DNA of 64,000 nucleotides from Nocardioides sp. (lineage in GTDB: Bacteria > Actinomycetota > Actinomycetes > Propionibacteriales > Nocardioidaceae): assembly GCF_964228225.1 (NCBI RefSeq), contig NZ_CAXQZB010000043.1, forward strand, positions 11,610-75,609, in the 5' to 3' direction. Positions 1,688 through 26,216 of the stretch are shown here, piece after piece (position 1 is the first letter of the stretch; each line of letters opens with the position of its first letter). Under the pieces are notes generated by a model that had not been told where the DNA came from, did no database searches, and saw only the letters and a list, made by a program, of their open reading frames with translations. The translations under genes were made by a program, and so were the position numbers.

Positions 1688-3622
1688 GTGGAGGTCGCCC
1701 TGCTGCTCGTGTCCCTGGCCGTGAGCGTGCTGCTCGTCACCGCGGTCGCGGAGCGCCTGAACCTGCCCGCGCCGCTGCTGCTCATCGTCGTGGGGGTCGC
1801 GGCCTCCGCGGTGCCGGGAGTGCTGGAGATCGAGCTGAGCGCCGACGTCGTGCTGCTCGGGCTCCTGCCGCCCCTGCTCTACGCCGCCGCGCTGTCGACG
1901 TCGCTGGTGGACTTCAACGCCCAGCGGCGACCCATCCTGCTGCTCTCGGTCGGGCTGGTCATCGCCACGACGCTCGGCGTCGGGGCGGTCGTGCACGCCC
2001 TGATCCCCGGCATCGGCTGGCCGGTCGCGTTCGCCATCGGCGCGGTCGTGGCGCCGCCCGACGCGGTCGCCGCCACGGCCATCGCCCGGCGCATCGGCCT
2101 GCCCCGCCGGCTCGTGACGATCCTGGAGGGCGAGTCGCTGCTCAACGACGCCACGGCGCTGGTCGCGCTGCGCACGGCCCTGGCCGCCGGCGGCCTGACC
2201 GTCGGCCACGGCGCCGAGGAGAGCGCCGGGCACGGCGCCGGTCAGGGGGCCGGGCACGGGGGCTCCGGCGGCATCTCGGTGGGCGAGGTCGCCCTCGACT
2301 TCGTCGTCGCCGCCGGCGGCGGGGTGCTGGTCGGACTGCTGGTCTACGCCGTCGTCGGCCGGATCCGGGCCCGCCTCGAGGACCCCGTCATGGACACCGC
2401 GCTGTCCCTGGTCGTGCCCTTCGGCACCTACGTCGCCGCGGAGGAGATCCACGCCTCCGGGGTGATCGCCGTCGTGGTCGCCGGGCTGCTGCTCGGCCAC
2501 CAGGCCCCGGTCCTGCAGAGCGCGCAGTCGCGGATCGCGGAGCGGATGAACTGGCGCACCCTGGCCTTCGTGCTCGAGCACGCGGTGTTCCTGCTCATCG
2601 GCCTGCAGGCCGCCGGTCTGGTCGCCGACGTCGGCGACAGCACGCTGGGCACCGGTCGGATCATCGGCGTGTGCGCAGCGGTGCTGTTGGCCGTGATCGT
2701 CATCCGGCTGGCCTGGGTGTTCCCCTCCCGGTTCCTCATCGTCAAGCCCACCGCCGACCGCCACACCGGCCTGGTGCCGCCGGTCAGCCACACCTTCCTG
2801 CTCGGCTGGGCCGGCATGCGCGGCGTCGTCACGCTCGCGGCGGCCTTCGTGATCCCGGAGGGCACCGAGCACCGCGAGGTGCTGCTGCTCATCGCCTTCA
2901 CGACCGTGGCCGGCACCCTGCTGCTCCAGGGACTCACGCTGCCGGTGCTCACCCGCCGGCTGCGGGTGGAGCCGCCCGACCCGATGGACGACGCCCTGGC
3001 CCGCGCCACGCTGCTGCACCAGGCGGGGCTGGCCGGGGAGGCCAAGCTGGCCGAGCTCGACGTCGCCGACACCCACGGCGTCGTGGAGCTGATCCGCCAG
3101 CGCGTCGAGCAGCGCAACTTCGCCGCCTGGGAGCGCCTCGGCACCACACCGGGGGAGGAGAGCCCCAGCGACCTCTACGCCCGGGTGCGCGGGGAGATGA
3201 TCGACGCCGAGCGGGCGCGGATCCTCGAGATCCGCGCGGGCGGCACCGTGCCCTCGGAGGTCGTCGCCGACGTCCTGGCCCTGCTCGACGTCGAGGAGTC
3301 GATGCTCGACGTCGCCACCGAGGAGCGCGCCGAGCTGCGCGAGTCCACGAGCGGACGCCGCCCCGGCGAGCAGTGCGACCACCTGCTGTCCCACCCGGTG
3401 GTGGCCACCGCGACCGACGGCACCTGCCCGGGCTGCCTGGAGGAGGGCACCCGCTGGGTCGCGCTGCGCCAGTGCCTGGAGTGCAGGCACATCGGGTGCT
3501 GCGACTCCTCACCCGGGCGCCACGCCACCCGCCACTTCCACGACACCGGCCACCCGGTGATGCAGTCCGCCGAGCCGGGCGAGGACTGGCGCTGGTGCTA
3601 CGCCCACCACCTCACGGCCTGA
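1688..3622 (+). CDS. Na+/H+ antiporter (CPA1/NhaP-like) with C-terminal UBP-type zinc-finger domain
   Basis: GTG start gives VEVALLLVSLAVSVLLVTAVAERLNLPAPLLLIVVGV, a typical NhaP N-terminus. Multiple TM segments. Gly/His-rich loop GHGAEESAGHGAGQGAGHGGSGG. C-terminus CPGC..W..LRQCLECRHIGCCDSSPGRHATRHFHDTGHP matches the zf-UBP pattern. Confidence 0.85.
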   Translation: MEVALLLVSLAVSVLLVTAVAERLNLPAPLLLIVVGVAASAVPGVLEIELSADVVLLGLLPPLLYAAALSTSLVDFNAQRRPILLLSVGLVIATTLGVGAVVHALIPGIGWPVAFAIGAVVAPPDAVAATAIARRIGLPRRLVTILEGESLLNDATALVALRTALAAGGLTVGHGAEESAGHGAGQGAGHGGSGGISVGEVALDFVVAAGGGVLVGLLVYAVVGRIRARLEDPVMDTALSLVVPFGTYVAAEEIHASGVIAVVVAGLLLGHQAPVLQSAQSRIAERMNWRTLAFVLEHAVFLLIGLQAAGLVADVGDSTLGTGRIIGVCAAVLLAVIVIRLAWVFPSRFLIVKPTADRHTGLVPPVSHTFLLGWAGMRGVVTLAAAFVIPEGTEHREVLLLIAFTTVAGTLLLQGLTLPVLTRRLRVEPPDPMDDALARATLLHQAGLAGEAKLAELDVADTHGVVELIRQRVEQRNFAAWERLGTTPGEESPSDLYARVRGEMIDAERARILEIRAGGTVPSEVVADVLALLDVEESMLDVATEERAELRESTSGRRPGEQCDHLLSHPVVATATDGTCPGCLEEGTRWVALRQCLECRHIGCCDSSPGRHATRHFHDTGHPVMQSAEPGEDWRWCYAHHLTA

Positions 3623-6059: not shown

Positions 6060-7358
6060 TCAGGAGTCGAGGGACTCCCGCACCGGGAGGAACTTCGCGG
6101 CCGCCTCGGCCAGCTCGGCGGCGGGGTCGGAGTCACCGACGATCCCGCAGCCGGCGAACAGGCGCACGACGTCGCGCTGCTCGCCCACGAGCTCGGCCGA
6201 GCGCAGGGCGATGCCCCACTCGCCGTCGCCGCGGGCGTCCATCCACCCCACCGGTGCGGCGTAGCGGCCGCGGTCCATGCCCTCGATCTCGGCGATGGTG
6301 TCCACCGCGACGTCGGTGGGGGTGCCGCCCACCGCCGCGGAGGGGTGCAGGGCGGCGGCGAGGGCGAGGGAGGAGGCCGACTCGGCCACCGGCACCACGC
6401 CGGTGACGTCGGTGGCCAGGTGCATGACGTTGGGCAGGTGCAGCACGAACGGCGCCTCGGGCACGTTCATCGACGTGCAGTGCGGCCCGAGCGCCTCAGC
6501 CACCGAGCGCACGGCGTACTCGTGCTCCTCCAGGTCCTTCGACGACCGCGCCAGCGCGGCCGCCAGGGCGAGGTCGCGCAGGTCGTCGCCGGTGCGGCGG
6601 ATCGTGCCGGCCAGCACCCGGGAGGTGACCAGGCCGCGCTCGCGCCGCACGAGCATCTCCGGGGTGGCGCCGAACATGCCCTCCACGTGGAAGGTCCAGC
6701 AGGTGGGGTAGCGCTCGGTGAGTCGCCGCAGCGGCCACCGCACGTCGATCGGTGCGCCGGCGCGCGCGATGAGGTCGCGGGCCAGGACGACCTTCTCCAG
6801 GCGTCCGTCGCCGATGCGCGCCACGGCCTCGGCCACCGCCGCGGCCCAGGCGTCGTCGTCCAGGGCCCCGGGGCCGACGACGAGGTCGACGGGGGCCGGC
6901 GGGGCGGCGGTGGGCTGTGGGGCCGTCTCGTGGCGCCCGAGCGTGCCGGCGGCCACGGTGGTGAGCCAGGCGGTGTCGCCCCGGCGCCCGACGACGACCT
7001 GCGGCACGACCGCCACCGAGGTGCCGGGTGCGTCGGCGAAGCCGAAGCTGGCGAAGCACACCGGGCCGGTGCCGGGACGGTCGACCTCGTCGCGCACCAC
7101 CGCGTGGCCGACGAGCTCGGCCCACCACGCGTCGACCGCGGCGAACCGGTCAGGGCCCTGCGAGGTCGTGCGGGCGGCGACGCCCCAGCCCACCAGGCCC
7201 TCGCCCCGGCGCAGCCACGCCACCTGGTCGGCGGGCGGCAGCAGGGTGACCAGGGCGGCCAGCGCGTCGGCGTCCAGCGCGACCGTGCGGACGACGAGGG
7301 GGGCCTCGTCGGGCACGGCATGCAGGCTCACACCGACGAGCCTACTCAAGGTCGGCAT
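6060..7358 (-). CDS. menF: Isochorismate synthase (menaquinone-specific, MenF)
   Basis: C-terminal chorismate-binding blocks (GTPT, GMDRGRYAAPVGW, GEWGIALRSA, AGCGIVGDSDP). ATG at 7356-7358. The 782-aa track ORF is an upstream over-extension. Confidence 0.85.
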   Translation of the reverse strand: MPTLSRLVGVSLHAVPDEAPLVVRTVALDADALAALVTLLPPADQVAWLRRGEGLVGWGVAARTTSQGPDRFAAVDAWWAELVGHAVVRDEVDRPGTGPVCFASFGFADAPGTSVAVVPQVVVGRRGDTAWLTTVAAGTLGRHETAPQPTAAPPAPVDLVVGPGALDDDAWAAAVAEAVARIGDGRLEKVVLARDLIARAGAPIDVRWPLRRLTERYPTCWTFHVEGMFGATPEMLVRRERGLVTSRVLAGTIRRTGDDLRDLALAAALARSSKDLEEHEYAVRSVAEALGPHCTSMNVPEAPFVLHLPNVMHLATDVTGVVPVAESASSLALAAALHPSAAVGGTPTDVAVDTIAEIEGMDRGRYAAPVGWMDARGDGEWGIALRSAELVGEQRDVVRLFAGCGIVGDSDPAAELAEAAAKFLPVRESLDS

Positions 7359-7418: not shown

Positions 7419-8060
7419 ATGGCTACCACCCCTGCGGGTACGTCCCTGCCCCTGCGCGGCGTCGTCGGCGGCGTCGCGCTGCTGGCCGTCGTCGGCGGCT
7501 TCGCGATCGGTCTGCCGAAGGTGGACTCGGGGCCGGACGGCGGCGCCTCCGTCGCCGCCCTCCCCGACAGCCTGCCGAGCGGCCTGGTGGCGGTGGACAC
7601 GCTGCAGAGCGGACCCTTCGTCTCCCAGATCGACGTCGTGGCGCTGCGCGACGTCGAGGTGCGCGCCGTCTCCGCGCTCGACGACTTCTACGACTCCTCC
7701 AGCGCCTACCGCCTCTACGGGCGCGCCGACGGCAGCGCCCTCGGCGCCGTCACCGTCATCGGCCGCGCGCCGGGACCGTTCCCCGGCGACGCCCTGCCGA
7801 TCGCGGCCACCGACCCCGCCAACACGGCGCGGCCCTCCGCGCTGGTGCAGCGCGTGGGTGCCGCGATCTGCGAGATCACCTGGGGGCAGGCGGTGCCGGC
7901 CGGCCAGACCCCCGACCCGACCCAGCTGCCGCAGCAGGTGCGGTGCCAGCAGGGCACCGACCAGACGGTGCAGTTCTCCGTGGCCGGCCTGACCCTCGCC
8001 GAGGTCGAGCAGGTCCTCGCCGCCCTGCCGGGCGGCGAGGGGTCGGCTCAGGACCAGTAG
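7419..8060 (+). CDS. Hypothetical membrane-anchored or secreted protein
   Basis: ATG at 7419, N-terminal TM/signal segment LRGVVGGVALLAVVGGFAIGL, high GC3 codon usage. No family recognised. Confidence 0.55.
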   Translation: MATTPAGTSLPLRGVVGGVALLAVVGGFAIGLPKVDSGPDGGASVAALPDSLPSGLVAVDTLQSGPFVSQIDVVALRDVEVRAVSALDDFYDSSSAYRLYGRADGSALGAVTVIGRAPGPFPGDALPIAATDPANTARPSALVQRVGAAICEITWGQAVPAGQTPDPTQLPQQVRCQQGTDQTVQFSVAGLTLAEVEQVLAALPGGEGSAQDQ

Positions 8061-8944
8061 ACGACGACGTCGTCGCCCACCTGCACCTGGTCGAACAGGG
8101 CGGCGAGGGCGTCGTAGTCGCGCACGTTGACGCAGCCGTGGGACGCCCCGGCGTAGCCGACGCCGGCGAAGTCGCTGGAGTAGTGGACGGCCTGGCCGCC
8201 GGAGAAGAACATCGCGAAGGGCATCGAGCTGCCGTAGAGCGAGGACACGTGGTCGCGGCTCTTGTACTCGACGTGGAACAGGCCCTCCCGGGTCGGGGTG
8301 TACTCGCTGCCGAAGCGCACGTCGAGGGTGGTGAGCACCCGGCCGTCCACGACCCAGCGCAGCGTGCGGCTGGTCTTGTCCACGCACAGCACCCGACCGG
8401 TCTCGCACCGCGGGTCCAGCGGGCCGGGCACGTTCTCACCGAGCCGGTTCTCCAGCTCCTCGGTGGTGGGCTCGGTGGTCATCTCCTCCAACCGGTCCAG
8501 CGTGGTGCGGTCGACCACGCCGGTGGCGGCGAATCCGCGCTTGGCCTGGAAGCCGCGCACGGCCTCGGTCGTGACGTCGCCGTAGTAGCCGGTGACGTCG
8601 GCGGCGAACCAGTCGATCTGACGCAGTCGCGCCTGGATCTCGCGCACCTGCGGGCCCTCGTCGCCCGGCGAGAACAGGGCGGGTCCGGCGACCGGGCCGG
8701 CCGGCTCGGTGGGCTGGGAGGGCTCAGTGGGCTCGGTGGGCTGGGAGGGTTCGGCGGGCTCGGTGGGCTCGGGGGTGGCCGTCCCGCGGTCGCGCGGCCG
8801 GTCCCCGTCCTGCGTGCGGGCGCTGGCGGCGCGGGTGACCTCGCGGTCGGAGGACAGCAGGCCGTTCGCGGTGAGGGCCAGCACGGTGCCTCCCAGCACG
8901 AGGGCCACCAGCACGGTGAGGGCGAGACGACGGACGGCGGTCAT
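8048..8944 (-). CDS. L,D-transpeptidase (YkuD domain) with peptidoglycan-binding domain and Pro-rich linker
   Basis: PG-binding-like [21 protein letters not shown]. YkuD catalytic block [11 protein letters not shown]...ASHGCVNV. N-terminal TM anchor. Start at MTAVRRL (8942-8944). Confidence 0.85.
8703..8775. repeat. 27-bp tandem repeat (about 2.7 units) inside the L,D-transpeptidase gene
   Basis: GGCTCGGTGGGCTGGGAGGGCTCAGTG / GGCTCGGTGGGCTGGGAGGGTTCGGCG / GGCTCGGTGGGCTCGGGGG. Encodes the PTEP(A/T)EPSQ linker on the minus strand. Confidence 0.6.
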
Positions 8945-9038
8945 GGTGGGTCCTCCAGGGTTCGGATCGTTGCTCACCCAGGAGACGCCGCCCGGAGGGG
9001 TTTGGTTGCCATCACCCCCGGACCTCTACGCTGCGAGG

Positions 9039-9728
9039 GTGGCCCGCGCCGACCTTGACAAGCAGCCCGCCGACGTCCAGGCGATGTTCGACACCGTCGC
9101 CCGCCGGTACGACCTCACCAACGACGTCCTGTCCCTGGGGCAGGACCGCCGCTGGCGCGGGGCCGTCCTGCGGGCCGTCGCGCCGCGGGCGGGCGAGCGG
9201 GTGCTCGACCTCGCGGCCGGCACCGGCACCTCCAGCGTGCCGTTCCGGCAGCAAGGTGCGGTCGTCGTGCCCTGCGACTTCTCCCTCGGCATGCTCCGGG
9301 TCGGCAAGAAGGCCCGGCCCCAGCTGCCCTTCGTGGCCGGCGACGGCACCCGGCTGCCCTTCGCCGACGGCTCCTTCGACGCCGTCACGATCTCCTTCGG
9401 GCTGCGCAACATCGTCGACCCCCTCGCGGGCCTGCGCGAGCTGCGGCGGGTCACCCGCCCCGGCGGCCGGCTCGTGGTCTGCGAGTTCAGCCACCCCACC
9501 TGGGCGCCGTTCCGCACGCTCTACGTCGAGTACCTGATGAAGGCCCTGCCCGCAGTGGCCACGGCGGTGTCGAGCTCGCCCGACGCCTACGTCTACCTCG
9601 CGGAGTCGATCCGCGCCTGGCCCGACCAGCCCAAGCTGGCCGGCATGATCGCCGAGGCCGGCTGGCACGCCCCGGAGTGGCGCAACCTCTCCGGCGGCAT
9701 CGTGGCGCTGCACCGCGCCACCGCCTGA
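9039..9728 (+). CDS. menG: Demethylmenaquinone methyltransferase (MenG/UbiE family)
   Basis: [37 protein letters not shown] and [12 protein letters not shown] are the classic UbiE/MenG signature. GTG start at 9039. Confidence 0.9.
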
Positions 9729-9782
9729 GGCTTCCCGGCTCCCCGCGCCCGCGGGACCCCGACGCCGCCCCCATCACGCACC

Positions 9783-9816
9783 GAGGCCCGCCCCACCGGC
9801 AGGTGGGACGGGCCTC
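9783..9816. terminator. Hairpin between convergent menG and AIM24 genes
   Basis: GAGGCCCGCCCCACC-GGCA-GGTGGGACGGGCCTC. 15-bp stem with one mismatch, no T-tract. Confidence 0.4.
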
Positions 9817-9850
9817 GCGGCACGCCGGCGGGGGCGGGAGGGATCGGGGC

Positions 9851-10612
9851 TCAGTACTGCGCCTGCTGGGCCCGCGCCATCAGTCGCTGGCCCAGGGCCC
9901 CGGCCGACTGGGCGTCGAGCAGGTGGGTCTGGGACTCCACCAGCCGCATCAGCGAGCCGTCGGCGCGCATCTGCTCCGAGGACTGCATCAGGATCGTGCC
10001 GGAGCCGGTGAAGTCGTACTGGCGCTCCTCGCCCGACTCCCGCCCGAACATCGCGCCCATGCCGGCCATGAACGACTGGGTCATCCAGTTGTAGTCGTAG
10101 TGCTGGCACGGCGAGGGGCAGTCGGCCCAGCCGAGCAGCGCGTCGGGGTCGGCGCGGAACGGCGGCTCCACGAAGATCACCGGGCCGTTGGAGGAGGCCA
10201 GGAACTTCCCGGTGCCGATCAGGGTGAGGTAGCCGGGGATGATCGACTGCTTGAGCTCCAGGCCTGTCTGGAAGGCCAGCAGGTTGGCGGCCTTGATCGT
10301 GAGGTTGCCGCCGTCGAGGTCGAAGGAGTTGATGTCGTTGCCGCGGTCGCCGATCACGAGCTTGCCGTGACCCGAGGCCACCACCCAGTCCTGGGAGTAG
10401 ATCGGGCTGGAGAAGCGGGCCGCCACCCAGGCGGCGCGGGAGGCGTACTGCGAGACCGCGGCGAACTCGATCTGGCCGTAGTAGGCGATCATCGCGCCCT
10501 TGGAGGTGAACCACTCACCGGCCAGGTTGATCGAGAAGGCGTAGGGGTTGATGTTGTCGTCGACCGGCAGGGTGTTCGGGTCGTAGACGGTGGAGCCGGA
10601 CATCTCGATCAT
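9851..10612 (-). CDS. AIM24/DUF124 family protein, paralogue 3 (253 aa)
   Basis: Family-like blocks: SKGAMIAYYGQIEF, GHGKLVIGDRG, LTIKAANLLAF, GSGTILMQS. The ATG overlaps the upstream stop (TGATG at 10610-10614). Confidence 0.75.
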   Translation of the reverse strand: MIEMSGSTVYDPNTLPVDDNINPYAFSINLAGEWFTSKGAMIAYYGQIEFAAVSQYASRAAWVAARFSSPIYSQDWVVASGHGKLVIGDRGNDINSFDLDGGNLTIKAANLLAFQTGLELKQSIIPGYLTLIGTGKFLASSNGPVIFVEPPFRADPDALLGWADCPSPCQHYDYNWMTQSFMAGMGAMFGRESGEERQYDFTGSGTILMQSSEQMRADGSLMRLVESQTHLLDAQSAGALGQRLMARAQQAQY

Positions 10613-11262
10613 CAGAACTTCTCCTCCGAGGCCTGGACGTAGACCCGGCCGTGGCCGGACAACTGGAGCTGGAAGGCCTCGCCGGAGCCGCGCCCGACGA
10701 GGTCGCGGAACCCGACGGCGGCCTTGAGGTCGACGTTGAGGGCCCCGGTGTGGCCGACGTAGGCCTGGGGGTCGACGCCGATCTGCTCGCCGTTGAGCGG
10801 CAGCTCGACGGTGCCGCCGTGCGAGAGCAGCGCGACGGTGCCCACACCGCTGATCTTGGAGGTGAACAGCCCCTGGCCGGTCATGGCGCCGGCCACGGCC
10901 TGGCGGATGCCGCCTTGGGCGATCATCTCGACCCCGACCGAGAGGTGGGCGTGGTAGGCGAGCAGCCGGCTCGCCTCGACGGTGAGGGTCTCGTTGCCGA
11001 GCTCGACGACGGTGACGTGCAGGCCGCGGAAGCCGTAGATGACCTTGCCCTGGCCCTCGGCGACCATGTTCGAGGTGCTCTCGCCGGCGAGGGCGGAGCC
11101 GATCATCCCGCCGATGCCCTGGCCCTGACCGGAGATCGGGCGGAAGGTCACCTGGCCCTCGTAGCCGAGCATCGAGCCGCGGCGGGCGATGACCTCGCGG
11201 CCCGGGGCGACCTCGGTGCGCACGACCTTGCTGTTGATCTGTTCGAACGACACGCCGCTCAC
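10612..11262 (-). CDS. AIM24/DUF124 family protein, paralogue 2 (about 216 aa)
   Basis: ARRGSMLGYEGQVTF, EGQGKVIYG, LTVEASRLLAY, VDPQAYVGHTG, GEAFQLQLSGHGRVYVQ. A GTG at 11260-11262 overlaps the upstream stop (GTGA). An alternative GTG lies at 11253. Confidence 0.8.
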   Translation of the reverse strand: MSGVSFEQINSKVVRTEVAPGREVIARRGSMLGYEGQVTFRPISGQGQGIGGMIGSALAGESTSNMVAEGQGKVIYGFRGLHVTVVELGNETLTVEASRLLAYHAHLSVGVEMIAQGGIRQAVAGAMTGQGLFTSKISGVGTVALLSHGGTVELPLNGEQIGVDPQAYVGHTGALNVDLKAAVGFRDLVGRGSGEAFQLQLSGHGRVYVQASEEKF

Positions 11263-11876
11263 CTCTCCGCCGGCTGGATGTACACGGTGCCCTGGCCCTC
11301 GAAGCGCAGGCTGAACGGCTCGCCGCCGCTCTCGCCCATCACGCTGCGCCAGGTGACGCCGGAGACCAGGTTCATCTGCAGGTTGCCGGTGCCGGCGACG
11401 TAGGCGTCGGGGTCGACCACCAGCGGCTGGCCCGGCACGACCGCGAGGCCGATCAGCGGCCCGTCGGAGGTGATCGCGCACTGGCCGGTGCCGCTCACGC
11501 TCGTGGTGGCCAGGCCCTGGCCGCTGGTCATGCCGCGCAGGCCGGAGAACTGCACGTCGAGCTTGAGGCCGTCGGTGACGGCCAGGATGTGCTCGGACTC
11601 GACGGTGAGCTTGTCGTTGGACAGGCCGACGACGGTGACGTCGAGCGCGGACTGGGCGATGTAGACCCGGCCCTGGCCCTGGCACTCCATGAGGTTGATC
11701 GACTCACCGGCGACGCGCTGGCGCAGCGCGGCCCGCAGGCCGCCGCCCCCGCCCATGCCGGCGTTCTTGAACGTGACCTGACCGGTGTAGGCGACCATCG
11801 AGCCCTGGGCGGCGCGGATGGTGTCTCCGGTCAGATCGGCGTGCAGCATCTTCTTGTGGGCGGACAGACTCGCCAT
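11259..11876 (-). CDS. AIM24/DUF124 family protein, paralogue 1 (205 aa)
   Basis: AAQGSMVAYTGQVTF, CQGQGRVYI, LTVESEHILAV, VDPDAYVAGTG, GEPFSLRFEGQGTVYIQ. AGGAG lies 6 nt upstream of the ATG at 11874-11876. Confidence 0.8.
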   Translation of the reverse strand: MASLSAHKKMLHADLTGDTIRAAQGSMVAYTGQVTFKNAGMGGGGGLRAALRQRVAGESINLMECQGQGRVYIAQSALDVTVVGLSNDKLTVESEHILAVTDGLKLDVQFSGLRGMTSGQGLATTSVSGTGQCAITSDGPLIGLAVVPGQPLVVDPDAYVAGTGNLQMNLVSGVTWRSVMGESGGEPFSLRFEGQGTVYIQPAER

Positions 11877-12189
11877 GCGTGCTCCTGATCGTTCCTGATC
11901 GGACGGGGTGGGTCCCCGCAGGCTCCCGACGACGGACACTAGCCGCCCTCGGCTGGCTGCTGCATCCCCTGCGCGCACGGCCGGGAAACCCGGGGTGGAC
12001 GGCGGCCTCCCGGCGCGGGTCACCGGGAGGGGTGGGCCGTCCCACCGGTGCGCGTGCGATCTTGCCCACACCCCCGTGTGACGTTGCCGACGTGGGGTGG
12101 CAGGATGAGGCGTCGACACCTCGTGATCTGGTTCACAAGCCGTGGGGCCGGGTCGCGCCGGAGGCGTCGCCGATGTGGAAGGAGCCCCG

Positions 12190-12549
12190 ATGGAGCTGTA
12201 CACCCCCGTCCTCGCGCTCGCCGCGCTCGCGGCCCTGTTCGCGGTCGGCTCGATCGTGACCAGCGCACTCGTCGGGCCCTCGCGGTACAACCGGGCCAAG
12301 CTCGACTCCTACGAGTGCGGCATCGAGCCGACGCCGCAGCCCGTCGGTGGCGGCCGGTTCCCGGTGAAGTACTACATCACCGCGATGCTCTTCATCGTCT
12401 TCGACATCGAGATCATCTTCCTCTACCCCTGGGCCGTGCACTTCGACGCGATGAAGCTGTTCGGCCTGGTCGAGATGGTCATCTTCATCGCCACCGTGTT
12501 CGTCGCCTACGCCTACGTCTGGCGTCGCGGCGGCCTGGACTGGGACTGA
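12190..12549 (+). CDS. nuoA: NADH-quinone oxidoreductase subunit A
   Basis: 119 aa, three TM segments, YECGIEP motif, first gene of the nuo operon. Confidence 0.9.
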
Positions 12550-12599
12550 TCCCGGGGCACCCCGGCGGACCGCAACCGGATCGAGAGAGGACCACTGGA

Positions 12600-13154
12600 A
12601 TGGGTATCGAGGAGAAGCTCCCCAGCGGCGTGCTGCTCAGCACGGTCGAGGGACTCAGCGGCTACATGCGCAAGGCCAGCTTCTGGCCCGCGACCTTCGG
12701 CCTGGCCTGCTGCGCCATCGAGATGATGACCACGGGCGGCCCGAAGTACGACCTCGCCCGGTTCGGCATGGAGGTCTTCCGCGCCAGTCCGCGCCAGGCC
12801 GACCTGATGATCGTGGCCGGCCGGGTGAGCCAGAAGATGGCCCCGGTGCTGCGCCAGATCTACGACCAGATGCCGAACCCGAAGTGGGTGCTGGCCATGG
12901 GCGTGTGCGCCTCCAGCGGCGGCATGTTCAACAACTACGCGATCGTGCAGGGCGTCGACCACGTCGTCCCGGTGGACATGTACCTGCCGGGCTGCCCGCC
13001 GCGCCCGGAGATGCTGATCGACGCGATCCTCAAGCTCCACGACCAGGTGCAGAGCACCAAGCTCGGCGCGAACCGGATCGCGGAGATCCAGGCGAACGAG
13101 ACCGCCGCGCTGCGGGCGCTCCCGACCTCGGACATGAAGGGGCTGCTGCGATGA
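12600..13154 (+). CDS. nuoB: NADH-quinone oxidoreductase subunit B
   Basis: [19 protein letters not shown] and LPGCPPRPE (N2 cluster ligands). Confidence 0.95.
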
Positions 13155-13855
13155 GCGATCCCACCTCCACCCCCGGCGCCACGCCCGGCGGCGACGCCGT
13201 CCCGGTCGCCCCGGGCACCGAGGTCCCCGTCGTCGGGGTGCGCACCGGCATGTTCGGCGTCTCCGGCACCGGCGACACCAGCGGCTTCGGCGGCCTCGTC
13301 AGCCCGGTCGTGCTGCCGGGCGCCGCCCCGCGGCCCTACGGCGGCTGGTTCGACGACGTCGCCGACGCCCTCGAGGCCGTCGGCGGCCCGATCGGCGCGG
13401 TCGTGCACCGCGGCGAGATCACCTTCCACGTGCGCCGCGAGGACCTGCCCGCCGTGGGCCGCGCCCTGCGCGACGACCCCGCCCTGCGCTTCGAGTTCTG
13501 CGCCGGCGTCAACGGCGTGCACTACCCGGGCGACACCGGCGCCGAGCTGCACGCGGTCTACCACTTCACCTCGATGACCTACAACCGCCGGATCCGGGTC
13601 GAGGTCACCGCCCCCGACGCCGACCCGCGCATCCCCTCCCTCGCCTCGGTCTACCCGACCCTGGACTGGCACGAGCGCGAGACCTGGGACATGTTCGGGA
13701 TCGTCTTCGAGGGCCACGCCGCGCTCACCCGGATCCTCATGCCCGACGACTGGCCGGGCCACCCCCAGCGCAAGGACTACCCGCTCGGCGGCATCCCCGT
13801 CGAGTACAAGGGCGGCACCATCGCGCCGCCGGACCAGCGGAGGAGCTACCACTGA
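13151..13855 (+). CDS. nuoC: NADH-quinone oxidoreductase subunit C
   Basis: 30-kDa subunit block [21 protein letters not shown] overlap with nuoB. Confidence 0.9.
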
Positions 13856-15201
13856 TGAGCACCACCGAGGACCTCTACGCCGGTGCCAACGACACCACCG
13901 ACGGCAAGGTGTTCACCGTCACCGGGCGTGACTGGGACGAGATCGTGGACGGCCTGGCCGGCGCCGAGGGCGTCGAGGAGCGGGTCGTGGTCAACATGGG
14001 CCCGCAGCACCCCTCCACCCACGGCGTGCTGCGCCTGATCCTGGAGATCGAGGGCGAGACGGTGACCGAGGCCCGCTGCGGCATCGGCTACCTCCACACC
14101 GGCATCGAGAAGAACATGGAGTTCCGCTCCTGGACGCAGGGCACCACGTTCTGCACCCGGATGGACTACCTCTCGCCCTTCTTCAACGAGGCCACCTACT
14201 GCCTGGGCGTCGAGCGGCTGCTCGACATCGAGGACGACGTGCCCGAGAAGGCGCAGGTCATGCGGGTGCTGCTCATGGAGCTCAACCGCATCTCCTCCCA
14301 CCTGGTGTGCATCGCCACCGGCGGCATGGAGATCGGCGCCCTGACGGTGATGACGATCGGCTTCCGCGAGCGCGAGCTGGTGCTCGACCTGTTCGAGCTC
14401 ATCACCGGCCTGCGCATGAACCACGCCTTCATCCGCCCCGGCGGCGTGGCCCAGGACCTGCCGCCCGGCGCCCTGGAGGAGATCCGGTCGTTCGTGGCGC
14501 TCATGCGCAAGCGACTGCCCGAGTACGCCGCGCTGTGCAACGCCAACCCGATCTTCAAGGCGCGGCTGGAGGGCGTGGGCCACCTCGACCTCGAGGGCTG
14601 CCTGGCCCTGGGCCTGTCCGGCCCGGTGCTGCGCAGCACCGGCTACGCCGGGGACCTGCGCAAGACCCAGCCGGACTGCGGCTACGAGGACTACGACTTC
14701 GACGTCCAGACCTGGGACACCGCCGACGCCTACGGCCGCTTCCGCATCCGGCTCGCCGAGATGTGGGAGTCGCTCAAGATCGTCGAGCAGGCCGCCGACC
14801 GCCTCGCCGGTCTCGACGGCGCGCCGGTCATGGTCGCGGACAAGAAGATCGGCTGGCCCAGCCAGCTGGCGGTCGGCAGCGACGGCATGGGCAACTCCCT
14901 CGACCACATCCGCCACATCATGGGCGAGTCGATGGAGGCGCTGATCCACCACTTCAAGCTCGTCACCGAGGGCTTCCGGGTGCCGGCCGGCCAGGCCTAC
15001 GTCCCGATCGAGAGCCCCCGCGGCGAGCTCGGCGCGCACGTCGTCTCCGACGGCGGCACCCGGCCGTTCCGGGTGCACTTCCGCGACCCCAGCTTCACCA
15101 ACCTGCAGGCGACCAGCGTGATGAGCGAGGGCGGCCAGGTGGCCGACGTCATCGTCGCGATCGCCTCGATCGACCCCGTGATGGGAGGCGTCGACCGATG
15201 A
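13855..15201 (+). CDS. nuoD: NADH-quinone oxidoreductase subunit D
   Basis: [15 protein letters not shown], and SPRGELG near the C-terminus. 448 aa. Confidence 0.95.
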
Positions 15202-15917
15202 CGGCCACGAACCCGCCCGAGGCGGTGGAGACCACGCTCTCGGAGACCACGTGGAGCGAGCTGCGCGAGATCGCCGCCCGTTACCCCGAGGCCCGCTCGG
15301 GCCTGCTGCCGATGCTGCACCTGGTGCAGTCCGCGCAGGGCCGGGTGACGCCCGAGGGCATCGAGGCGTGCGCCGAGATCCTGGGCATCACCCCGGCCGA
15401 GGTCAACGGCGTGGCGACCTTCTACACGATGTACAAGCGCAAGCCGGTGGGGGAGTACCACGTCGGCGTCTGCACCACCGCGCTGTGCGCCGTCATGGGG
15501 GGCGACGAGATCCTCGCCCGCCTCCAGGACCACCTCGGCGTCGGCAACGACGAGACCACCGCCGACGGCAAGGTGACCCTCGAGCACATCGAGTGCAACG
15601 CCGCGTGCGACTACGCGCCGGTGATGATGGTCAACTGGGAGTTCCTGGACAACCAGACGCCGGACTCCGCCGTGCAGGTCGTCGACGACCTGCGCGCCGG
15701 CCGCCCGGTCACCTCCACCCGCGGTCCGCGGGTGTGCACCTGGCGGGAGGCCGAGCGCGTGCTCGCCGGCTTCCCCGACGGACGGGCCGACGAGGGCCCG
15801 TCGGGCGGACCGGCCACCCTGGCCGGGCTCGCCATCGCGCGCGAGCGTGGCTGGACCGCGCCGACCGCGCCCGAACTCACCGCCCCTGAGTCGGCACAGG
15901 AGGCCACCGATGCCTGA
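15198..15917 (+). CDS. nuoE: NADH-quinone oxidoreductase subunit E
   Basis: 24-kDa subunit with 2Fe-2S cysteines ([12 protein letters not shown] ... [10 protein letters not shown]). ATGA overlap with nuoD. Confidence 0.9.
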
Positions 15918-17220
15918 CACCCTGACCCCGGTCCTCTCCAACACCTGGGACGCCCCGCAGTCCTGGAAGCTCGCCACCTACGAGGCGCAGGGCGGCTACG
16001 CCGCGCTGCGCACCGCCCTGGGCATGGCCCCCGACGACCTCATCACGATGGTCAAGGAGTCGGGTCTGCGCGGCCGCGGGGGCGCGGGCTTCCCCACCGG
16101 GATGAAGTGGTCCTTCATCCCGCAGGACAACCCCAAGCCCAAGTACCTCGTCGTCAACGCCGACGAGTCCGAGCCGGGCACCTGCAAGGACATCCCGCTG
16201 ATGATGGCCAGCCCCCACACGCTGGTCGAGGGCGTCATCATCAGCTCCTACGCCATCCGTGCGAACCACGCCTTCATCTACATCCGCGGCGAGGTGCTCC
16301 ACGTCGTGCGGCGGGTGCAGGCCGCGGTCGCGGAGGCCTACGCCGCCGGTCACCTCGGCAAGAACATCCACGGCTCGGGCTACGACCTCGACGTCGTCGT
16401 GCACACCGGCGCCGGCGCCTACATCTGCGGCGAGGAGACCGCCCTGCTGGAGGGCCTGGAGGGCCGTCGCGGCCAGCCCCGGCTGCGCCCGCCGTTCCCG
16501 GCGGTGGCCGGGCTCTACGCCAGCCCGACGGTGATCAACAACGTCGAGTCGATCGCCTCGGTGCCGTGCATCGTGAGCAACGGCGCCTCGTGGTTCTCCT
16601 CCATGGGCACCGAGAAGTCGGCCGGCATGACGCTCTACTCGCTCTCGGGCCACGTCAAGCGCCCCGGTCAGTACGAGGCGCCGCTCGGCATCACGCTGCG
16701 CGAGCTGCTCGATGTCGCCGGCGGCCTGCGCGAGGGCTCGGAGCTGAAGTTCTGGACCCCCGGCGGGTCCTCCACCCCGATCCTCACCGCCGAGCACCTC
16801 GACGTCCCGCTGGACTACGAGGGCGTCGGCGCGGCCGGCTCGATGCTCGGCACCAAGGCGCTGCAGATCTTCGACCAGACCACCTCGGTGGTGCGCGTCG
16901 TGCTGCGCTGGACCGAGTTCTACAAGCACGAGTCCTGCGGCAAGTGCACCCCGTGCCGCGAGGGCACCTGGTGGCTGGTGCAGACCCTCAAGCGCCTCGA
17001 GCGCGGCGAGGGCCAGCCTGGCGACATCGAGACCCTGCTCGACCTGTGCGACAACATCCTCGGGCGCTCCTTCTGCGCCCTCGGCGACGGCGCCACCAGC
17101 CCGATCGCCTCCGCGATCAAGTACTTCCGTGAGGAGTTCGAGGCCGGGATGCACACCCCTGCTGCGGAGCTGTTCCCCTACCGCGCCTCCACCGCCTACG
17201 CCGCGACGGTGAGCGCATGA
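15910..17220 (+). CDS. nuoF: NADH-quinone oxidoreductase subunit F
   Basis: [16 protein letters not shown] (FMN/NADH site) and [12 protein letters not shown] (N3 cluster). Confidence 0.95.
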
Positions 17221-19631
17221 CCACCCCCGCCGAGACCGGGGTCGACCTGGTCAGCGTCACCATCGACGGCATCGCCGTGCAGGTGCCCAAGGACACCCTG
17301 GTGATCCGGGCCGCCGAGCAGGTCGGGGTCGCGATCCCGCGCTTCTGCGACCACCCGCTGCTGGCCCCGGTCGGCGCGTGCCGGCAGTGCCTGGTCGACG
17401 TCCCCGACGCCGGCAACGGGCGCGGCTTCCCCAAGCCGCAGGCCTCGTGCACCCTCCCGGTCGCCGACGGCATGGTGGTCAACACCCAGCTCACCAGCCC
17501 GGTGGCGGAGAAGGCCCAGCACGGGGTGATGGAGTTCCTGCTCATCAACCACCCGCTGGACTGCCCCGTCTGCGACAAGGGCGGCGAGTGCCCGCTGCAG
17601 AACCAGGCGATGAGCAACGGCCAGGGCGAGTCCCGCTTCTCCAGCGGCCAGGCCGGGGTCAAGCGCACCTTCCCCAAGCCGATCAACCTCAGCCCCCAGG
17701 TGCTGCTCGACCGCGAGCGCTGCATCGTGTGCCAGCGCTGCACCCGCTTCGCCGCCGAGATCCCGGGCGATCCCTTCATCGCCCTGGTCGAGCGCGGGGC
17801 GCAGCAGCAGATCGGCATCGCCGAGGACGCCCCGTTCCTGTCCTACTTCTCCGGCAACACGATCCAGATCTGCCCGGTCGGCGCGCTGACCTCGGAGTCC
17901 TACCGGTTCCGGTCCCGCCCCTTCGACCTCGTCTCCACCCCCGGCGTCGCCGAGCACGACGCCTGCGGCGCCGCGATCCGCGTGGACCACCGCCGTGGCA
18001 CGGTCATGCGGCGCCTGGCCGGCCACGACCCCGAGGTCAACGAGGAGTGGATCACCGACAAGGACCGCTTCGCCTTCACCTACGCCACCCAGGACGACCG
18101 CCTCACCTACCCCCAGGTGCGCGACGAGGACGGCGAGCTGCGGCCGGCGTCGTGGCCCGAGGCGTTCGCCGTCGCGGCGCAGGGCCTGCACGCGGCCCGG
18201 GCCGCCGGCGGCGTCGCGGTGCTCACCGGCGGTCGGCTGACGGTCGAGGACGCCTACTCCTACAGCAAGTTCGCCCGCGTCGGGCTCGGCACCAACGACA
18301 TCGACTTCCGCGCCCGGCCGCACTCGGCCGAGGAGGAGGCGTTCCTGGGCCGTCACGTCGTCGGCACCGCCCCGGCCGGGGGCGGCGTCACCTACGCCGA
18401 CCTCGAGGCCGCCGGCACCGTCGTGCTCGTGGGCCTGGAGCCCGAGGACGAGGCCGGCACCCTGTTCCTGCGGCTGCGCAAGGCGGTGCTGCACCACGGC
18501 ACCTCCGTCACCGCGATCGCGCCCTTCACCACCCGCGGCCTCGGCAAGCTCCACGCCACCGTGGTGCCCACCGCGCCCGGCGCGGAGCCGGCCGCCCTGG
18601 CCGACCTCACCGGCCTCGGCGCCGGCGACGTCGTGCTGGTCGGGGAGCGGCTCGCGGCCGTGCCCGGCGGCCTGAGCGCCGTCGTCGCGCTCCTCGAGCG
18701 CACCGGCGCCCGCGTGGGCTGGGTGCCGCGGCGCGCGGGCGACCGTGGTGCCCTCGAGGTCGGCTGCCTGCCCTCCCTGCTGCCCGGCGGCCGCCCGGTC
18801 GCCGACGCCGCCGCCCGCGTCGACGTCGCCACCGCCTGGGGCGTCGACGGCCTGCCGGCCACCCCGGGCCGCGACGCCGAGGCCATCGTGGCCGCCCTGG
18901 CCTCGGGCGAGCTCGGCGGCCTGGTGATCGCCGGCGTCGACCCCGCCGACACCCCCGACCCCGCCGCCACCCGCGCCGCGATCGAGGCCGCCGGCTTCGT
19001 CGTGGCCCTGGAGCTGCGGGCCACCGACGTCACCCGCGCCGCCGACGTCGTGCTCCCGGTCGCCCCCGTGGTGGCCAAGGAGGGCGCGTTCGTCACCTGG
19101 GACGGCCGGGTCCGGCCCTTCGAGGCGGCCGTGCCGAGCCCGTCGGCGCTGCCCGACACCCGGGTGCTGGCCGGCATCTCCGAGGAGCTCGCGGCCCTCG
19201 GCGACGCCGCCCCGCTCGGCTTCCGCACCGTCGCCCAGGCCCGGGCCGAGATGACCGAGCTCGGCCCCTGGGACGGCGAGCGGGTGCCCTTCGTCCCCGT
19301 GCCCGCCGAGGGGCCCGGGTCCGTCGGCGACGGCCCGGTGCTCGCCAGCTGGAAGCTCATGCTCGACCTCGGGTCGATGCAGGACGGCGACAAGCACCTC
19401 GCCGCCACGGCCCGCCCGGCCACCGCGGTGGTCTCCCGCGCGGTCTTCGACGCCGTGGGCGGCGTCGTCACCCTCACCGGCGACCGCGGCTCGGTCACGC
19501 TGCCCGCCGAGGTCGCCGACGACCTCGCCGACGGCGTCGTCTGGGCCCCGGCCAACTCCACCGGTCAGGGCCTGCTCACCGACCTCGCCGGCCCGGGCTC
19601 CCGGGTCACCGTCACCGGAGGCAACCTGTGA
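17217..19631 (+). CDS. nuoG: NADH-quinone oxidoreductase subunit G
   Basis: [31 protein letters not shown] and [10 protein letters not shown], followed by a molybdopterin-like domain. 804 aa. Confidence 0.95.
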
Positions 19632-20947
19632 TGCTCCCCGTCCTCCCGCTCGCCGCGGACACCGAGCTGGCCGCCTTCGGCCAGGACACCTGGTGGATCC
19701 TGACCATCAAGGTTTTCGCGATCTTCCTCGTGCTCGTGCTGCTCACCCTGTTCAACATCTGGGCCGAGCGCCGCGTGGTGGCCCGCATGCAGCACCGCAT
19801 CGGCCCGAACGTGCACGGGCCCTTCGGCCTGCTGCAGTCGCTGGCCGACGGTGTGAAGCTGATGTTCAAGGAGGACATCCTCCCCAAGGCCGCCGACAAG
19901 GTGGTCTTCATCCTCGCCCCGATCATCGCGGCGGTGCCGGCGTTCGTGACCTTCGCGGTGATCCCCTTCGGTCCCGAGGTCACGATGTTCGGCGAGCGCA
20001 CCCCGCTGCAGCTCACCGACATGCCCGTGGCGGTGCTGTTCGTGATGGCGGTCGCCTCGATCGGCATCTACGGCATCGTGCTCGGCGGCTGGTCGAGCGG
20101 CTCCACCTACTCCCTGCTCGGCGGCCTGCGCTCGAGCGCCCAGATGATCTCCTACGAGGTCGCGATGGGCCTGGCGCTGGTGGCGGTGTTCCTCTACGCC
20201 GGCTCGATGTCGACCTCGGAGATCGTCGCGGCCCAGGAGGACCTCTGGTTCGGCCTGATCCTGATCCCGTCCTTCGTGATCTACGTGATCGCGATGGTGG
20301 GGGAGACCAACCGCGCCCCCTTCGACCTCCCCGAGGCCGAGGGCGAGCTGGTCGGCGGCTTCCACACCGAGTACTCCTCGATCAAGTTCGCGCTGTTCTT
20401 CCTCGCCGAGTACATCAACATGGCCACCGTCTCGGCGCTGGCCACGACGCTGTTCCTCGGCGGCTGGCGCGCGCCCTTCTGGATCGACAAGGTCTGGGCG
20501 GGCGCCAACGAGGGCTACGTGCCGGTGATCTGGTTCTTCGGCAAGGTGCTGTTCTTCATCTTCTTCTTCATCTGGCTGCGCGGCTCGCTGCCCCGACTGC
20601 GCTACGACCAGTTCATGGCCTTCGGCTGGAAGCGCCTCATCCCGATCGCGCTGGTGTGGATCGTCGCGGTCGCCACGCTGCGGGCCGCCAAGCTCGAGGG
20701 CTGGCTGGAGGGCGACTCCCTGCGCATCGTCATCGGGGTGCTCGCCGCGATCCTGCTGGTGCTCTTCTTCGTCGGCGGCACCGGTGGCGCCGCCGACACC
20801 GAGGACGCCGAGGTCGACCTCACCCCGCGCGAGGGCGGCTTCCCGACCCCGCCGATGCCGAGCACCGGTGCGGTGCGCGGCGCCGCCGCCCCGCTGGTGT
20901 TCGCCAGCCCGCCGACCCCCGCCCGCGTCGCAGGAGAGGACGCCTGA
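19631..20947 (+). CDS. nuoH: NADH-quinone oxidoreductase subunit H
   Basis: [20 protein letters not shown] and [20 protein letters not shown]. 438 aa, with an extra C-terminal TM segment and tail. Confidence 0.9.
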
Positions 20948-21531
20948 TGGCCGACCAGCCCGAGACCAAGACGCTCAAGGAGCAGCTCTGGGACCCGATC
21001 GCCGGCTTCGGCGTGACGTTCCGGACGATGTTCCGCAAGGTCGTCACCGAGCAGTACCCGTTCGAGAAGCTCCCCACCGCGCCGCGCTTCCACGGCCGCC
21101 ACCAGCTCAACCGCTGGCCCGACGGCCTGGAGAAGTGCGTGGGCTGCGAGCTGTGCGCCTGGGCCTGCCCGGCCGACGCGATCTACGTCGAGGGTGCCTC
21201 CAACGACGACGCCGCGGGCGAGCGGTACAGCCCCGGGGAGCGCTACGGCCGCGTCTACCAGATCAACTACCTGCGCTGCATCCTGTGCGGGCTGTGCATC
21301 GAGGCCTGCCCCACGCGCGCGCTGACGATGACCAACGAGTACGAGCTGGCCGACGACAACCGCACCGACCTCATCTACGAGAAGTCCGACCTGCTCGCCC
21401 CGCTGCTGCCGGGCATGGAGCAGCCGCCCCACCCCATGCTGCTGGGCGAGGACGAGTCGGCCTACTACCGCGGCGCCACGGGCGCCGCGCCGGCCACCCC
21501 GGCCGCCGGCGGAGCGGGGGAGGGCCGGTGA
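20947..21531 (+). CDS. nuoI: NADH-quinone oxidoreductase subunit I
   Basis: Two 4Fe-4S motifs: [12 protein letters not shown] and [12 protein letters not shown]. Confidence 0.95.
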
Positions 21532-22382: not shown

Positions 22383-22684
22383 TGGACGACGTCACCCCCT
22401 ACATCGTGCTGTCCTCGATCCTGTTCACCATCGGGGCCGTGGGCGTGCTGGTGCGCCGCAACGCCATCGTGGTGTTCATGTGCGTGGAGCTGATGCTCAA
22501 CGCCTGCAACCTGGCGCTGGTGGCCTTCGCCAAGCAGCACGGCAACCTCGACGGTCAGATCGCCGCCTTCTTCGTGATGGTCGTGGCCGCCGCCGAGGTC
22601 GTGGTCGGACTCGCGATCATCATGACCATCTTCCGGACCCGTCGCTCGGCCTCGGTCGACGACGCGAGCCTGCTGAAGTTCTGA
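22382..22684 (+). CDS. nuoK: NADH-quinone oxidoreductase subunit K
   Basis: 100 aa, three TM segments, CVELMLNA and [11 protein letters not shown] motifs. Confidence 0.95.
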
Positions 22685-22695
22685 AGGGCTAGAAC

Positions 22696-24627: not shown

Positions 24628-24712
24628 GGATCCCGCACCCCCACGCCCTGTTCGTCCCGGCCGCACGGGCTCCGCGCCCGCTCGGCCACGCTCCCTCCGG
24701 GATGGTCCGCTG

Positions 24713-26215: not shown

Positions 26216-26216
26216 C

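Follow-up and report, generated by a model that had tools for sequence, protein, structure and literature searches.

An apparently ancient three-paralogue AIM24 operon of Actinomycetota, found beside complex I genes in some Nocardioides

Gene arrangement of the locus

The window, i.e. the complete stretch of 64,000 nucleotides from Nocardioides sp. analysed here, harbors three neighbouring genes on the minus strand, denoted A, B and C, which are located between a ubiE/menG family gene and nuoA. The region contains the following features:

9054-9728, plus strand: ubiE/menG family gene, convergent with C (Pfam Ubie_methyltran, 6e-60)
9763-9836: GC-rich hairpin (arms 9763-9797 and 9802-9836) between the convergent stops of C and ubiE/menG
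9851-10612, minus strand: AIM24 paralogue C, 253 aa, ATG start at 10612
10612-11253, minus strand: AIM24 paralogue B, 213 aa, GTG start at 11253
11259-11876, minus strand: AIM24 paralogue A, 205 aa, ATG start, the most canonical of the triplet
11877-12189: divergent spacer of 313 bp between A and nuoA
11936-11941, minus strand: candidate -10 hexamer TAGTGT, read from the sequence, about 60 nt upstream of the start of A
12121-12138: Rex-like box matching the Rex-operator pattern, 52 nt from nuoA and 245 nt from A
12190 onwards, plus strand: nuoA, divergent from A (Oxidored_q4 profile match)
27803-28804: polyprenyl synthase gene (profile match)

The three adjacent paralogous reading frames described in the first-pass annotation are present, with BLASTP and the PF01987 profile in agreement. 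Its account of the flanks, comprising ubiE/menG, the 313-bp divergent spacer to nuoA, 14 same-strand gene calls and a polyprenyl synthase gene, holds as well. The run of 14 calls extends over 12190-27806 and begins with nuoA, which is the gene of this run tested with a profile HMM, while nuoB to nuoD were identified by reading their translations. Ribosome-binding sites read from the sequence are AGGAG for A (11886-11882), GGAGAGG for B (11268-11262, 8 nt 5' of GTG 11253) and GGAGGAG for C (10627-10621). At the B/C junction the reported TGATG is found at 10614-10610, the ATG of C overlapping the TGA of B by 1 nt. The A/B junction, by comparison, has to be revised in part: the GTGA tetranucleotide proposed as a gene overlap exists at 11262-11259, and a start at GTG 11262 would give B the 216 aa originally assigned to it, but GTG 11253, which leaves a 5-nt spacer after A and yields 213 aa, is the more likely true start. 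The latter codon is the start of B in gene calls on identical metagenome contigs, and 213 aa is the length of most B orthologues.

The -10 hexamer is assigned by inference, because a scan for the sigma-70 consensus returned no match; a scan for the terminator consensus was likewise empty. Most related loci have a hexamer of the type TAnnnT in this position irrespective of which gene lies upstream, and many triplet starts in these loci look leaderless. The hairpin at 9763-9836, detected via folding and an inverted-repeat search only, has an RNA fold of -66.1 kcal/mol (z = -4.3, with none of 200 shuffles as stable) and resembles a bidirectional terminator without a U tract. Rfam gave no match in 9000-13000 at E values up to 1. 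With a candidate -10 element at one end and a terminator-like hairpin at the other, the triplet of the window looks like a transcription unit of its own.

Family membership and paralogy

All three proteins exceed the gathering score of the Pfam AIM24 family (PF01987, 25.7 bits), with A reaching 134.5 bits (5e-39, profile positions 8-204 of 205), B 125.3 bits (3e-36, positions 7-204) and C 40.1 bits (4e-10, positions 20-204). The family assignment, formerly made by eye, was therefore right, and C, which had been singled out as the most diverged gene, indeed has the lowest score. Pairwise BLASTP gives 39% identity for A/B (5e-34), 24% for A/C (3e-12) and 26% for B/C (7e-13). Of the two profiles proposed earlier for a check, PF01987 is thus passed by all three proteins, but the curated cut-off of NCBIfam TIGR00266 (AIM24 subfamily, hypothetical equivalog; 96.6 bits) is reached by none, with 65.3 bits for A, 33.5 bits for B and no match for C. 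As measured by this cut-off, A, B and C are not members of the TIGR00266 subfamily. None of the three proteins matched an anti-phage defence model of PADLOC-DB 2.0 at E values up to 0.01.

Conservation of the operon

The order A-B-C on a single strand is kept in 82 of 82 related loci, with junctions of -4 to +15 nt at 93% of the loci for A/B and at 97% for B/C, which bears out the original description of one tightly coupled operon. A C-type gene is carried by at least 591 species genomes; the 80 genome loci considered below are the best-scoring ones of these and are phylogenetically non-independent. C is the best conserved paralogue across the phylum, with a mean identity of 61% and a minimum of 56% over the 82 loci and a range of 56-80% from Nocardioides to Streptomyces. 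The three orthologue groups split cleanly (C-C at least 0.90 bits per residue, versus at most 0.36 for A-C and B-C), and the triplication is therefore old. Judging from these sequences, the triplet is an ancient operon conserved across Actinomycetota and belongs to the better conserved uncharacterised operons of this phylum.

Predicted structures of A and C

The AF2 single-chain model of A (mean pLDDT 80.2) superposes on 1PG6 (SPyM3_0169) with a TM score of 0.72 and on 1YOX (PA3696) with 0.65-0.68, while Foldseek found no further PDB match for it at E < 0.1. Over this range of TM scores (0.65-0.72) both proteins display the same all-beta AIM24 domain as A. They differ from the genes described here in that the latter are three diverged paralogues which are always co-encoded, and in that C carries N- and C-terminal additions as well as an insertion.

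In the AF2 model of C, residues 11-140 mostly show pLDDT values of 76-92, residues 148-216 fall below 50, and two helices are formed by residues 219-231 and 234-252. The sole real structural matches are again 1PG6 and 1YOX, with TM scores of 0.33-0.48 over about 125-170 aligned columns; these low scores and short alignments are a consequence of the poorly modelled segment 148-216. Despite its low model confidence this segment is highly conserved, and the low confidence may be an artefact of a shallow alignment. C is set apart by additional residues at its N-terminus, by an insertion within its last third and by a helical tail at its C-terminus (about 219-252). The tail is confined to C, and its pattern is kept in most genera. 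None of the three proteins contains a transmembrane segment: averaged over 19 residues, their Kyte-Doolittle hydropathy reaches about 1.0 at best.

The repeats of AIM24 proteins have been likened to TRAP, the trp RNA-binding attenuation protein. Solved bacterial AIM24 structures consist of three TRAP-like beta-sandwich repeats, and an AIM24 homotrimeric ring anchored via C-terminal helices has been modelled (PMC6677890).

Gene neighbourhoods

Within the 80 best-scoring genome loci, nuoA or nuoB is located at most 10 kb from the triplet in two cases, both of them Nocardioides close to the organism of the window. Two Nocardioides genomes (L007, L008) share the arrangement of the window, with nuoA divergent from and ubiE/menG convergent with the triplet, and in Jatrophihabitans fulvus nuoA-C are found about 8 kb away. 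In Nocardioides zeae and a Nocardioides-like MAG (L006) TerD lies downstream of the triplet, in place of nuo. The neighbours vary in Streptomyces, Actinomadura, Rhodococcus, Nocardia, Geodermatophilus and Cellulomonas: they are MarR, DUF3817 and, presumably, scy/filP in Streptomyces, EAL, two-component system and glyoxalase genes in Actinomadura, and an ECF sigma factor and methyltransferases in Cellulomonas. The idea that the Streptomyces homologues adjoin nuoA is contradicted by the locus data.

Genes of the ter (tellurite-resistance) stress-response system lie within 10 kb of the triplet at 18 of the 80 loci, in nine lineages and with varying order and orientation. The set comprises TerD, TerC/DUF475, C-C lyase, PRTase-StiP and HAD-like genes, and the lineages include Geodermatophilus, Nocardia, Gordonia, Mycobacterium, Tsukamurella, Antrihabitans, Aquipuribacter and the Nocardioides-like MAG; in Nocardioides zeae and Trujillonella the triplet is likewise ter-linked. 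On a 304-kb plasmid of Mycolicibacterium alvei it adjoins a complete ter cluster of Tellurium resistance/DUF475/TerD/aldolase/PRTase/StiP/TerD genes. No ter gene is present within 10 kb at 62 of the 80 loci, including all those of Streptomyces, Actinomadura and Rhodococcus, and a tblastn search of all 64 kb of the window detected no ter homologue. Over the 80 best-scoring loci, ter is alone in turning up repeatedly beside the triplet in different taxonomic orders, with its genes rearranged. Since the window lacks ter genes and its relatives display ter linkage, the copy of the window is a detached homologue of an often Ter-linked module.

Neighbourhoods of AIM24 and TerD were known earlier (Anantharaman, Iyer & Aravind 2012, cited in PMC5822837), and AIM24 within a ter cluster is also seen in Psychrobacter; the triplet itself may already be mentioned by Anantharaman et al. 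Such Ter-embedded AIM24 cases are similar to the 18 actinobacterial loci and to the Mycolicibacterium plasmid. The proteobacterial cases described so far concern a single AIM24 gene of the TIGR00266 type, whereas a fixed operon of three paralogues is found here, and in the window as well as in most loci the triplet stands apart from ter genes.

Proposed assembly and partners

The observations above establish paralogy, operon structure, conservation, fold and the pattern of neighbours; from them we infer a heterotrimer, tail-mediated docking and a functional coupling to Ter. A hetero-oligomer of A, B and C is in itself plausible in view of the constant gene order and the close junctions. In the reading that we tentatively prefer, with a little less than even confidence, the triplet is a three-subunit AIM24 module with an operon of its own, a 1:1:1 ring and Ter proteins as likeliest partners. 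A, B and C would be made from one translationally coupled operon with its own housekeeping-type promoter, each of them as a soluble all-beta AIM24 domain of three TRAP-like beta-sandwich repeats, and would assemble in a 1:1:1 manner into a single ring of nine repeats. Such a ring is the most likely arrangement, given that models of homomeric AIM24 proteins are rings of three subunits. C alone would supply an amphipathic helical tail at its C-terminus, docking to a partner or to a membrane surface. The likeliest partners would be TerD paralogues, which are Ca-binding, and the membrane protein TerC/DUF475, rather than NADH dehydrogenase, and the operon of the window would simply be placed between ubiE/menG and nuoA. 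The fixed set of three paralogues thus provides a concrete assembly hypothesis, a heterotrimeric ring, together with a candidate partner system. As mechanisms are obscure both for the Ter system and for eukaryotic AIM24 proteins, a defined bacterial complex would help to understand either.

A stronger version, in which an obligate heterotrimeric ring of nine repeats is a core, hitherto overlooked structural component of the actinobacterial Ter system and the tail of C as well as acidic conserved loops dock on TerD and TerC/DUF475 at the membrane, is regarded as unlikely. If true, a prokaryotic AIM24 protein would for the first time have a defined assembly and a defined partner, and the ring would be a prokaryotic prototype of the way in which eukaryotic Aim24 and PAWH stabilise membrane complexes.

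It appears somewhat unlikely that the heteromeric module has a general housekeeping role without a tie to Ter, e.g. as a scaffold or chaperone, the ter adjacency being lineage-restricted. The 62 loci without ter neighbours would agree with such a role, as would the housekeeping-like, often leaderless appearance of the TAnnnT promoters and the neighbours in Streptomyces, Actinomadura and Cellulomonas, which share no common theme; however, ter alone recurs across orders in rearranged form and even accompanies the triplet on a plasmid. That the three paralogues, though co-transcribed, each form a homo-oligomer of their own and act on different partners or ligands is improbable. Homomeric assemblies are what has been solved and modelled for AIM24 proteins (PMC6677890), and A alone folds confidently in AF2, but the strict 1:1:1 presence, fixed order and (near-)overlapping junctions in 82 of 82 loci argue for joint action, and the monomer model of C has low confidence over its conserved last third.

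Comparison with eukaryotic AIM24 proteins

PAWH1/PAWH2 (AIM24-B) of the plant Hrd1 complex of ER-associated protein degradation (ERAD; PMC6677890) and yeast Aim24 contain the same AIM24 domain as A, B and C. For PAWH a ring has been proposed (PMC6677890) which attaches to the membrane via a C-terminal helix and keeps a complex of membrane proteins stable; the helices of C are formally analogous to this C-terminal helix. PAWH and Aim24 are membrane-anchored or mitochondria-targeted and modelled as homotrimers, whereas A, B and C are devoid of a transmembrane segment. The reported roles of eukaryotic AIM24 proteins, namely in MICOS, ERAD and cell fusion, are unrelated (PMC10203443, PMC6677890), which makes the analogy with yeast Aim24 drawn in the first-pass annotation a weak guide to function. 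In 2019 bacterial AIM24 proteins were without any known function (PMC6677890); in the literature on bacterial members we found no function reported since then and no expression or phenotype data.

Relation to complex I and the Rex-like box

The triplet had initially been considered as part of a respiratory-chain or menaquinone-linked system, a reading that was to be given up if relatives carried the triplet without linkage to nuo or men genes. Such relatives are what the census revealed, and the reading is therefore not supported. Linkage to nuo, as looked for in a complex I accessory factor, is not conserved across lineages (2/80 loci). As judged by these gene orders, the triplet adjoins the complex I genes by local coincidence, and the adjacency is an unsuitable basis for annotating these AIM24 genes.

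The Rex-like box between A and nuoA, the single match in the window, lies about 180 nt upstream of the candidate -10 hexamer of the triplet. About 20 Streptomyces-type loci have the triplet divergent from a gene carrying a Rex-like box, and at every such locus the distance from the box to this DUF3817 gene (1-95 nt) is shorter than that to the next gene on the side of the triplet (61-205 nt). Because the boxes are nearer to nuoA or to the DUF3817 gene, they are assigned to these genes, and Rex control of the triplet was rejected. An Aim24-like accessory or organiser of NDH-1 and menaquinone metabolism, co-regulated with nuo, is accordingly very improbable: the arrangement shared with two Nocardioides genomes, the nuoA-C genes of Jatrophihabitans fulvus and the Rex-like boxes in the A-nuoA region and on the divergent Streptomyces-type genes would fit, but nuoA/B linkage is restricted to one narrow clade while other Nocardioides have TerD, the boxes lie closer to other genes, and the eukaryotic functions are heterogeneous (PMC10203443, PMC6677890). 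Across loci totalling 1.75 Mb the Rex-operator pattern has 26 matches, all of them intergenic and beside the triplet or nuo.

Three paralogous genes of conserved order

Three open reading frames are arranged head-to-tail on the minus strand of the window (G+C about 73%), between a ubiE/menG-family gene and nuoA, and are denoted A, B and C, together the triplet:

11876-11259, minus strand: A, 205 aa
GTG 11253 (213 aa) or GTG 11262 (216 aa) to 10612, minus strand: B
10612-9851, minus strand: C, 253 aa

The closest relatives of all three proteins are from Nocardioides. A, B and C exceed the gathering score of Pfam AIM24 (PF01987, 25.7 bits) with 134.5, 125.3 and 40.1 bits, respectively; A and B match NCBIfam TIGR00266 only under its cut-off, and C does not match it. 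A and B share 39% identity (E 5e-34), and C is 24-26% identical to both (E 3e-12 and 7e-13). The assignment as AIM24 paralogues in the first-pass annotation is borne out by the PF01987 scores and the pairwise identities of 24-39%. The family is a known one, of which all three are ordinary members.

At the B/C junction the 1-nt overlap TGATG is present as annotated. The GTGA at the A/B junction also exists, but a 5-nt spacer is the likelier arrangement, since the 213-aa form of B is called on identical metagenome contigs, B orthologues are mostly 213 aa long, and GGAGAGG is located 8 nt 5' of GTG 11253. The genes are tightly coupled under either start of B, and by our own gene calls in the related loci 93% of the A/B junctions and 97% of the B/C junctions fall between -4 and +15 nt.

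A pattern scan covering one genome per species detected a C-type gene in at least 591 genomes. The best 80 of these belong without exception to the Actinomycetota and include Nocardioides, Geodermatophilus, Rhodococcus, Nocardia, Gordonia, Mycobacterium, Tsukamurella, Actinomadura, Streptomyces, Pseudonocardia, Kineococcus, Sanguibacter and others. In tblastn searches A, B and C follow each other in this order on a single strand in all 82 of 82 loci with usable flanks. Comparison of bits per residue leaves the orthologue groups unmixed (medians A-A 1.08, B-B 0.94 and A-B 0.61; C-C at least 0.90, A-C and B-C at most 0.36), and as these groups are separate, the triplication is, judged from sequence comparison, older than the split between these orders. 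Although C departs furthest from the Pfam model, its conservation is the highest of the three, with a mean identity across loci of 61% (minimum 56%) compared to 56% for A and 52% for B. In NCBI, one A-type protein (P0304, 81% identical to A of the window) on a 1.87-Mb contig is attributed to Myroides odoratimimus subsp. xuanwuensis (Bacteroidota), which probably reflects a mislabelled or contaminated assembly and not a real transfer.

Structural models and proposed assembly

The model of A is all-beta (pLDDT 80, pTM 0.77), with low confidence in the conserved glycine-rich loops 40-59 and 112-121 and at residues 183-185; a structure search with it returned 1PG6 (TM 0.72) and 1YOX (TM 0.65-0.68) and no other match. 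The model of C is confident for residues 11-140 and poor for the highly conserved residues 148-216; its C-terminal end consists of two helices (219-231 and 234-252), a pattern kept in most genera; in Streptomyces the tail is Gly/Pro-rich instead. No transmembrane segment was found in A, B or C.

According to PMC6677890, bacterial AIM24 crystal structures comprise three TRAP-like beta-sandwich repeats; the paper also models a flat homotrimeric ring attached to a membrane by protruding C-terminal helices. Since trimeric rings are the presumed assembly of the family, and since the three paralogues occur together without exception, in fixed order and with translational coupling, a 1:1:1 heterotrimeric ring of A, B and C with a tail supplied by C only would be the simplest mechanism. 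The fixed three-paralogue operon and the implied heterotrimer appear to be undescribed in the literature searched, and the triplet is a good target for multimer prediction and pull-down.

C is acidic (pI 4.6). Its specific motifs LPxDDNxNxY, RADPxxLLGWADCPSP and SGEExQxDFTG (residues 15-24 and 148-205; window about 10569-10540 and 10171-9998) vary little or not at all among 38 close orthologues and are rich in acidic residues; as a speculation, they might form a divalent-cation site, which would fit a TerD/Ca context.

Genomic association with ter genes

All called proteins in the loci were clustered and their positions around the triplet tabulated. The neighbourhoods are genus-specific:

Streptomyces: upstream a DUF3817 gene and a thiamine-binding-like gene, downstream a MarR gene
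Actinomadura: EAL protein, two-component system, glyoxalase
Cellulomonas: methyltransferases, ECF sigma factor

Among the 80 loci (the best of at least 591), the only theme recurring across orders is the cluster of ter (tellurite-resistance stress) genes, comprising TerD domain proteins, a DUF475/TerC membrane protein, C-C_Bond_Lyase, PRTase_2-TRSP-StiP-PELOTA_1 and a protein without Pfam match that we read as HAD-like. Such genes lie within 10 kb of the triplet in 18 of the 80 loci, from nine lineages, with the triplet upstream, downstream or inside the cluster and in varying orientation; Trujillonella is likewise ter-linked. On a 304-kb plasmid of Mycolicibacterium alvei the triplet is immediately followed by 'Tellurium resistance', DUF475 and TerD genes, then by genes for a protein of the aldolase/citrate-lyase family, a phosphoribosyltransferase and StiP, and by a further two TerD genes.

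This recurrent, rearranged and plasmid-borne association suggests the Ter apparatus as the most likely working partner of the triplet. A link between AIM24 and TerD neighbourhoods is already in the literature, having been proposed by Anantharaman, Iyer and Aravind (2012), as cited in PMC5822837. In three quarters of the loci, however, the triplet is detached from ter genes, and a housekeeping role independent of Ter therefore has to be taken seriously as a rival; in the 64-kb window no ter homologue was found.

Neighbourhood of the triplet in the window

The surroundings of the triplet are as follows:

19-1566: TPP-dependent enzyme (HMM matches to generic TPP-binding domains only), taken to be MenD
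6060-7358: chorismate-binding enzyme, taken to be isochorismate synthase MenF
7419-8060: 213-aa protein, no Pfam match, between menF and menG
8048-8944: L,D-transpeptidase with PG-binding domain, between menF and menG
9054-9728: ubiE/menG-family methyltransferase, convergent with C
9763-9836: GC-rich hairpin with 35-nt arms, between C and ubiE/menG
12121-12138, plus strand: Rex-operator-like palindrome TCGTGATCTGGTTCACAA
12190 to 27806: fourteen same-strand gene calls (nuoA tested by HMM, nuoB-D read from translations)
27803-28804: polyprenyl synthase, 4-nt overlap with the last nuo gene

The ubiE/menG gene, the 313-bp divergent spacer between A and nuoA, the fourteen gene calls from 12190 and the polyprenyl synthase agree with the first-pass annotation, which had proposed a respiratory-chain or membrane-associated system. 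The respiratory reading draws on the name of a yeast protein and on an adjacency limited to a single Nocardioides subclade. Of the 80 genome loci, only the 2 of N. litoris and Nocardioides sp. C4-1 have nuoA/B within 10 kb of the triplet, both with the window's layout of menF, L,D-transpeptidase, menG, triplet and nuo; other Nocardioides-type genomes (N. zeae and the MAG L006) carry TerD directly downstream instead. In Jatrophihabitans, eleven unrelated genes separate the triplet from nuoA, at a distance of 8 kb. The triplet thus occurs in relatives where it is not linked to nuo or men genes, an outcome that the first-pass annotation had named as refuting its proposal, and a new respiratory system is improbable.

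Genes of the menaquinone pathway are dispersed about the nuo operon. Among them, a Na+/H+ exchanger (Pfam Na_H_Exchanger, 1688-3622, plus strand) has a zf-UBP zinc finger at its C-terminus (E 1e-08), an unusual-looking domain pairing.

Regulatory elements

The hexamer TAGTGT (11941-11936) is a plausible -10 element of the triplet; TAnnnT hexamers precede A in other genera regardless of the upstream gene, where many A starts look leaderless. The hairpin at 9763-9836 is very stable (-66 kcal/mol, z = -4.3); it lacks a U tract and escaped the terminator scan. An inverted repeat (12019-12082; 19-nt arms, 79% complementary, 26-nt loop) occupies the middle of the nuoA/A divergent region.

The Rex-like palindrome has two mismatches to TTGTGAA-N4-TTCACAA and is the sole one in the 64-kb window (0.09 expected by chance). 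It precedes the nuoA start codon by 52 nt, at a distance of 245 nt from A, and recurs in the Nocardioides loci L007 and L008; the nuo operon is probably under Rex control through this site. In the 1.75 Mb of fetched loci the pattern matches 26 times, always between genes and beside the triplet or nuo, and about 20 of these matches come from Streptomyces-type loci without nuo genes. The Streptomyces/Actinacidiphila sites (L047, L050, L056, L059, L061, L062, L064, L065, L067, L068, L072, L073, L075-L081 and L085) have 1-2 mismatches and lie in the divergent region between A and the DUF3817 gene, which encodes a small membrane protein and is followed by the thiamine-binding-like gene. They are 1-95 nt from the DUF3817 gene (own start calls) and 61-205 nt from the next gene on the triplet's side, closer to the former in every locus; where an extra gene intervenes before A, the site is found in the spacer just upstream of it. 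By these distances to nuoA or the DUF3817 gene, the sites are assigned to the neighbouring genes and are not taken as evidence for Rex control of the triplet. It is nevertheless odd that the triplet adjoins a Rex-box promoter in two lineages.
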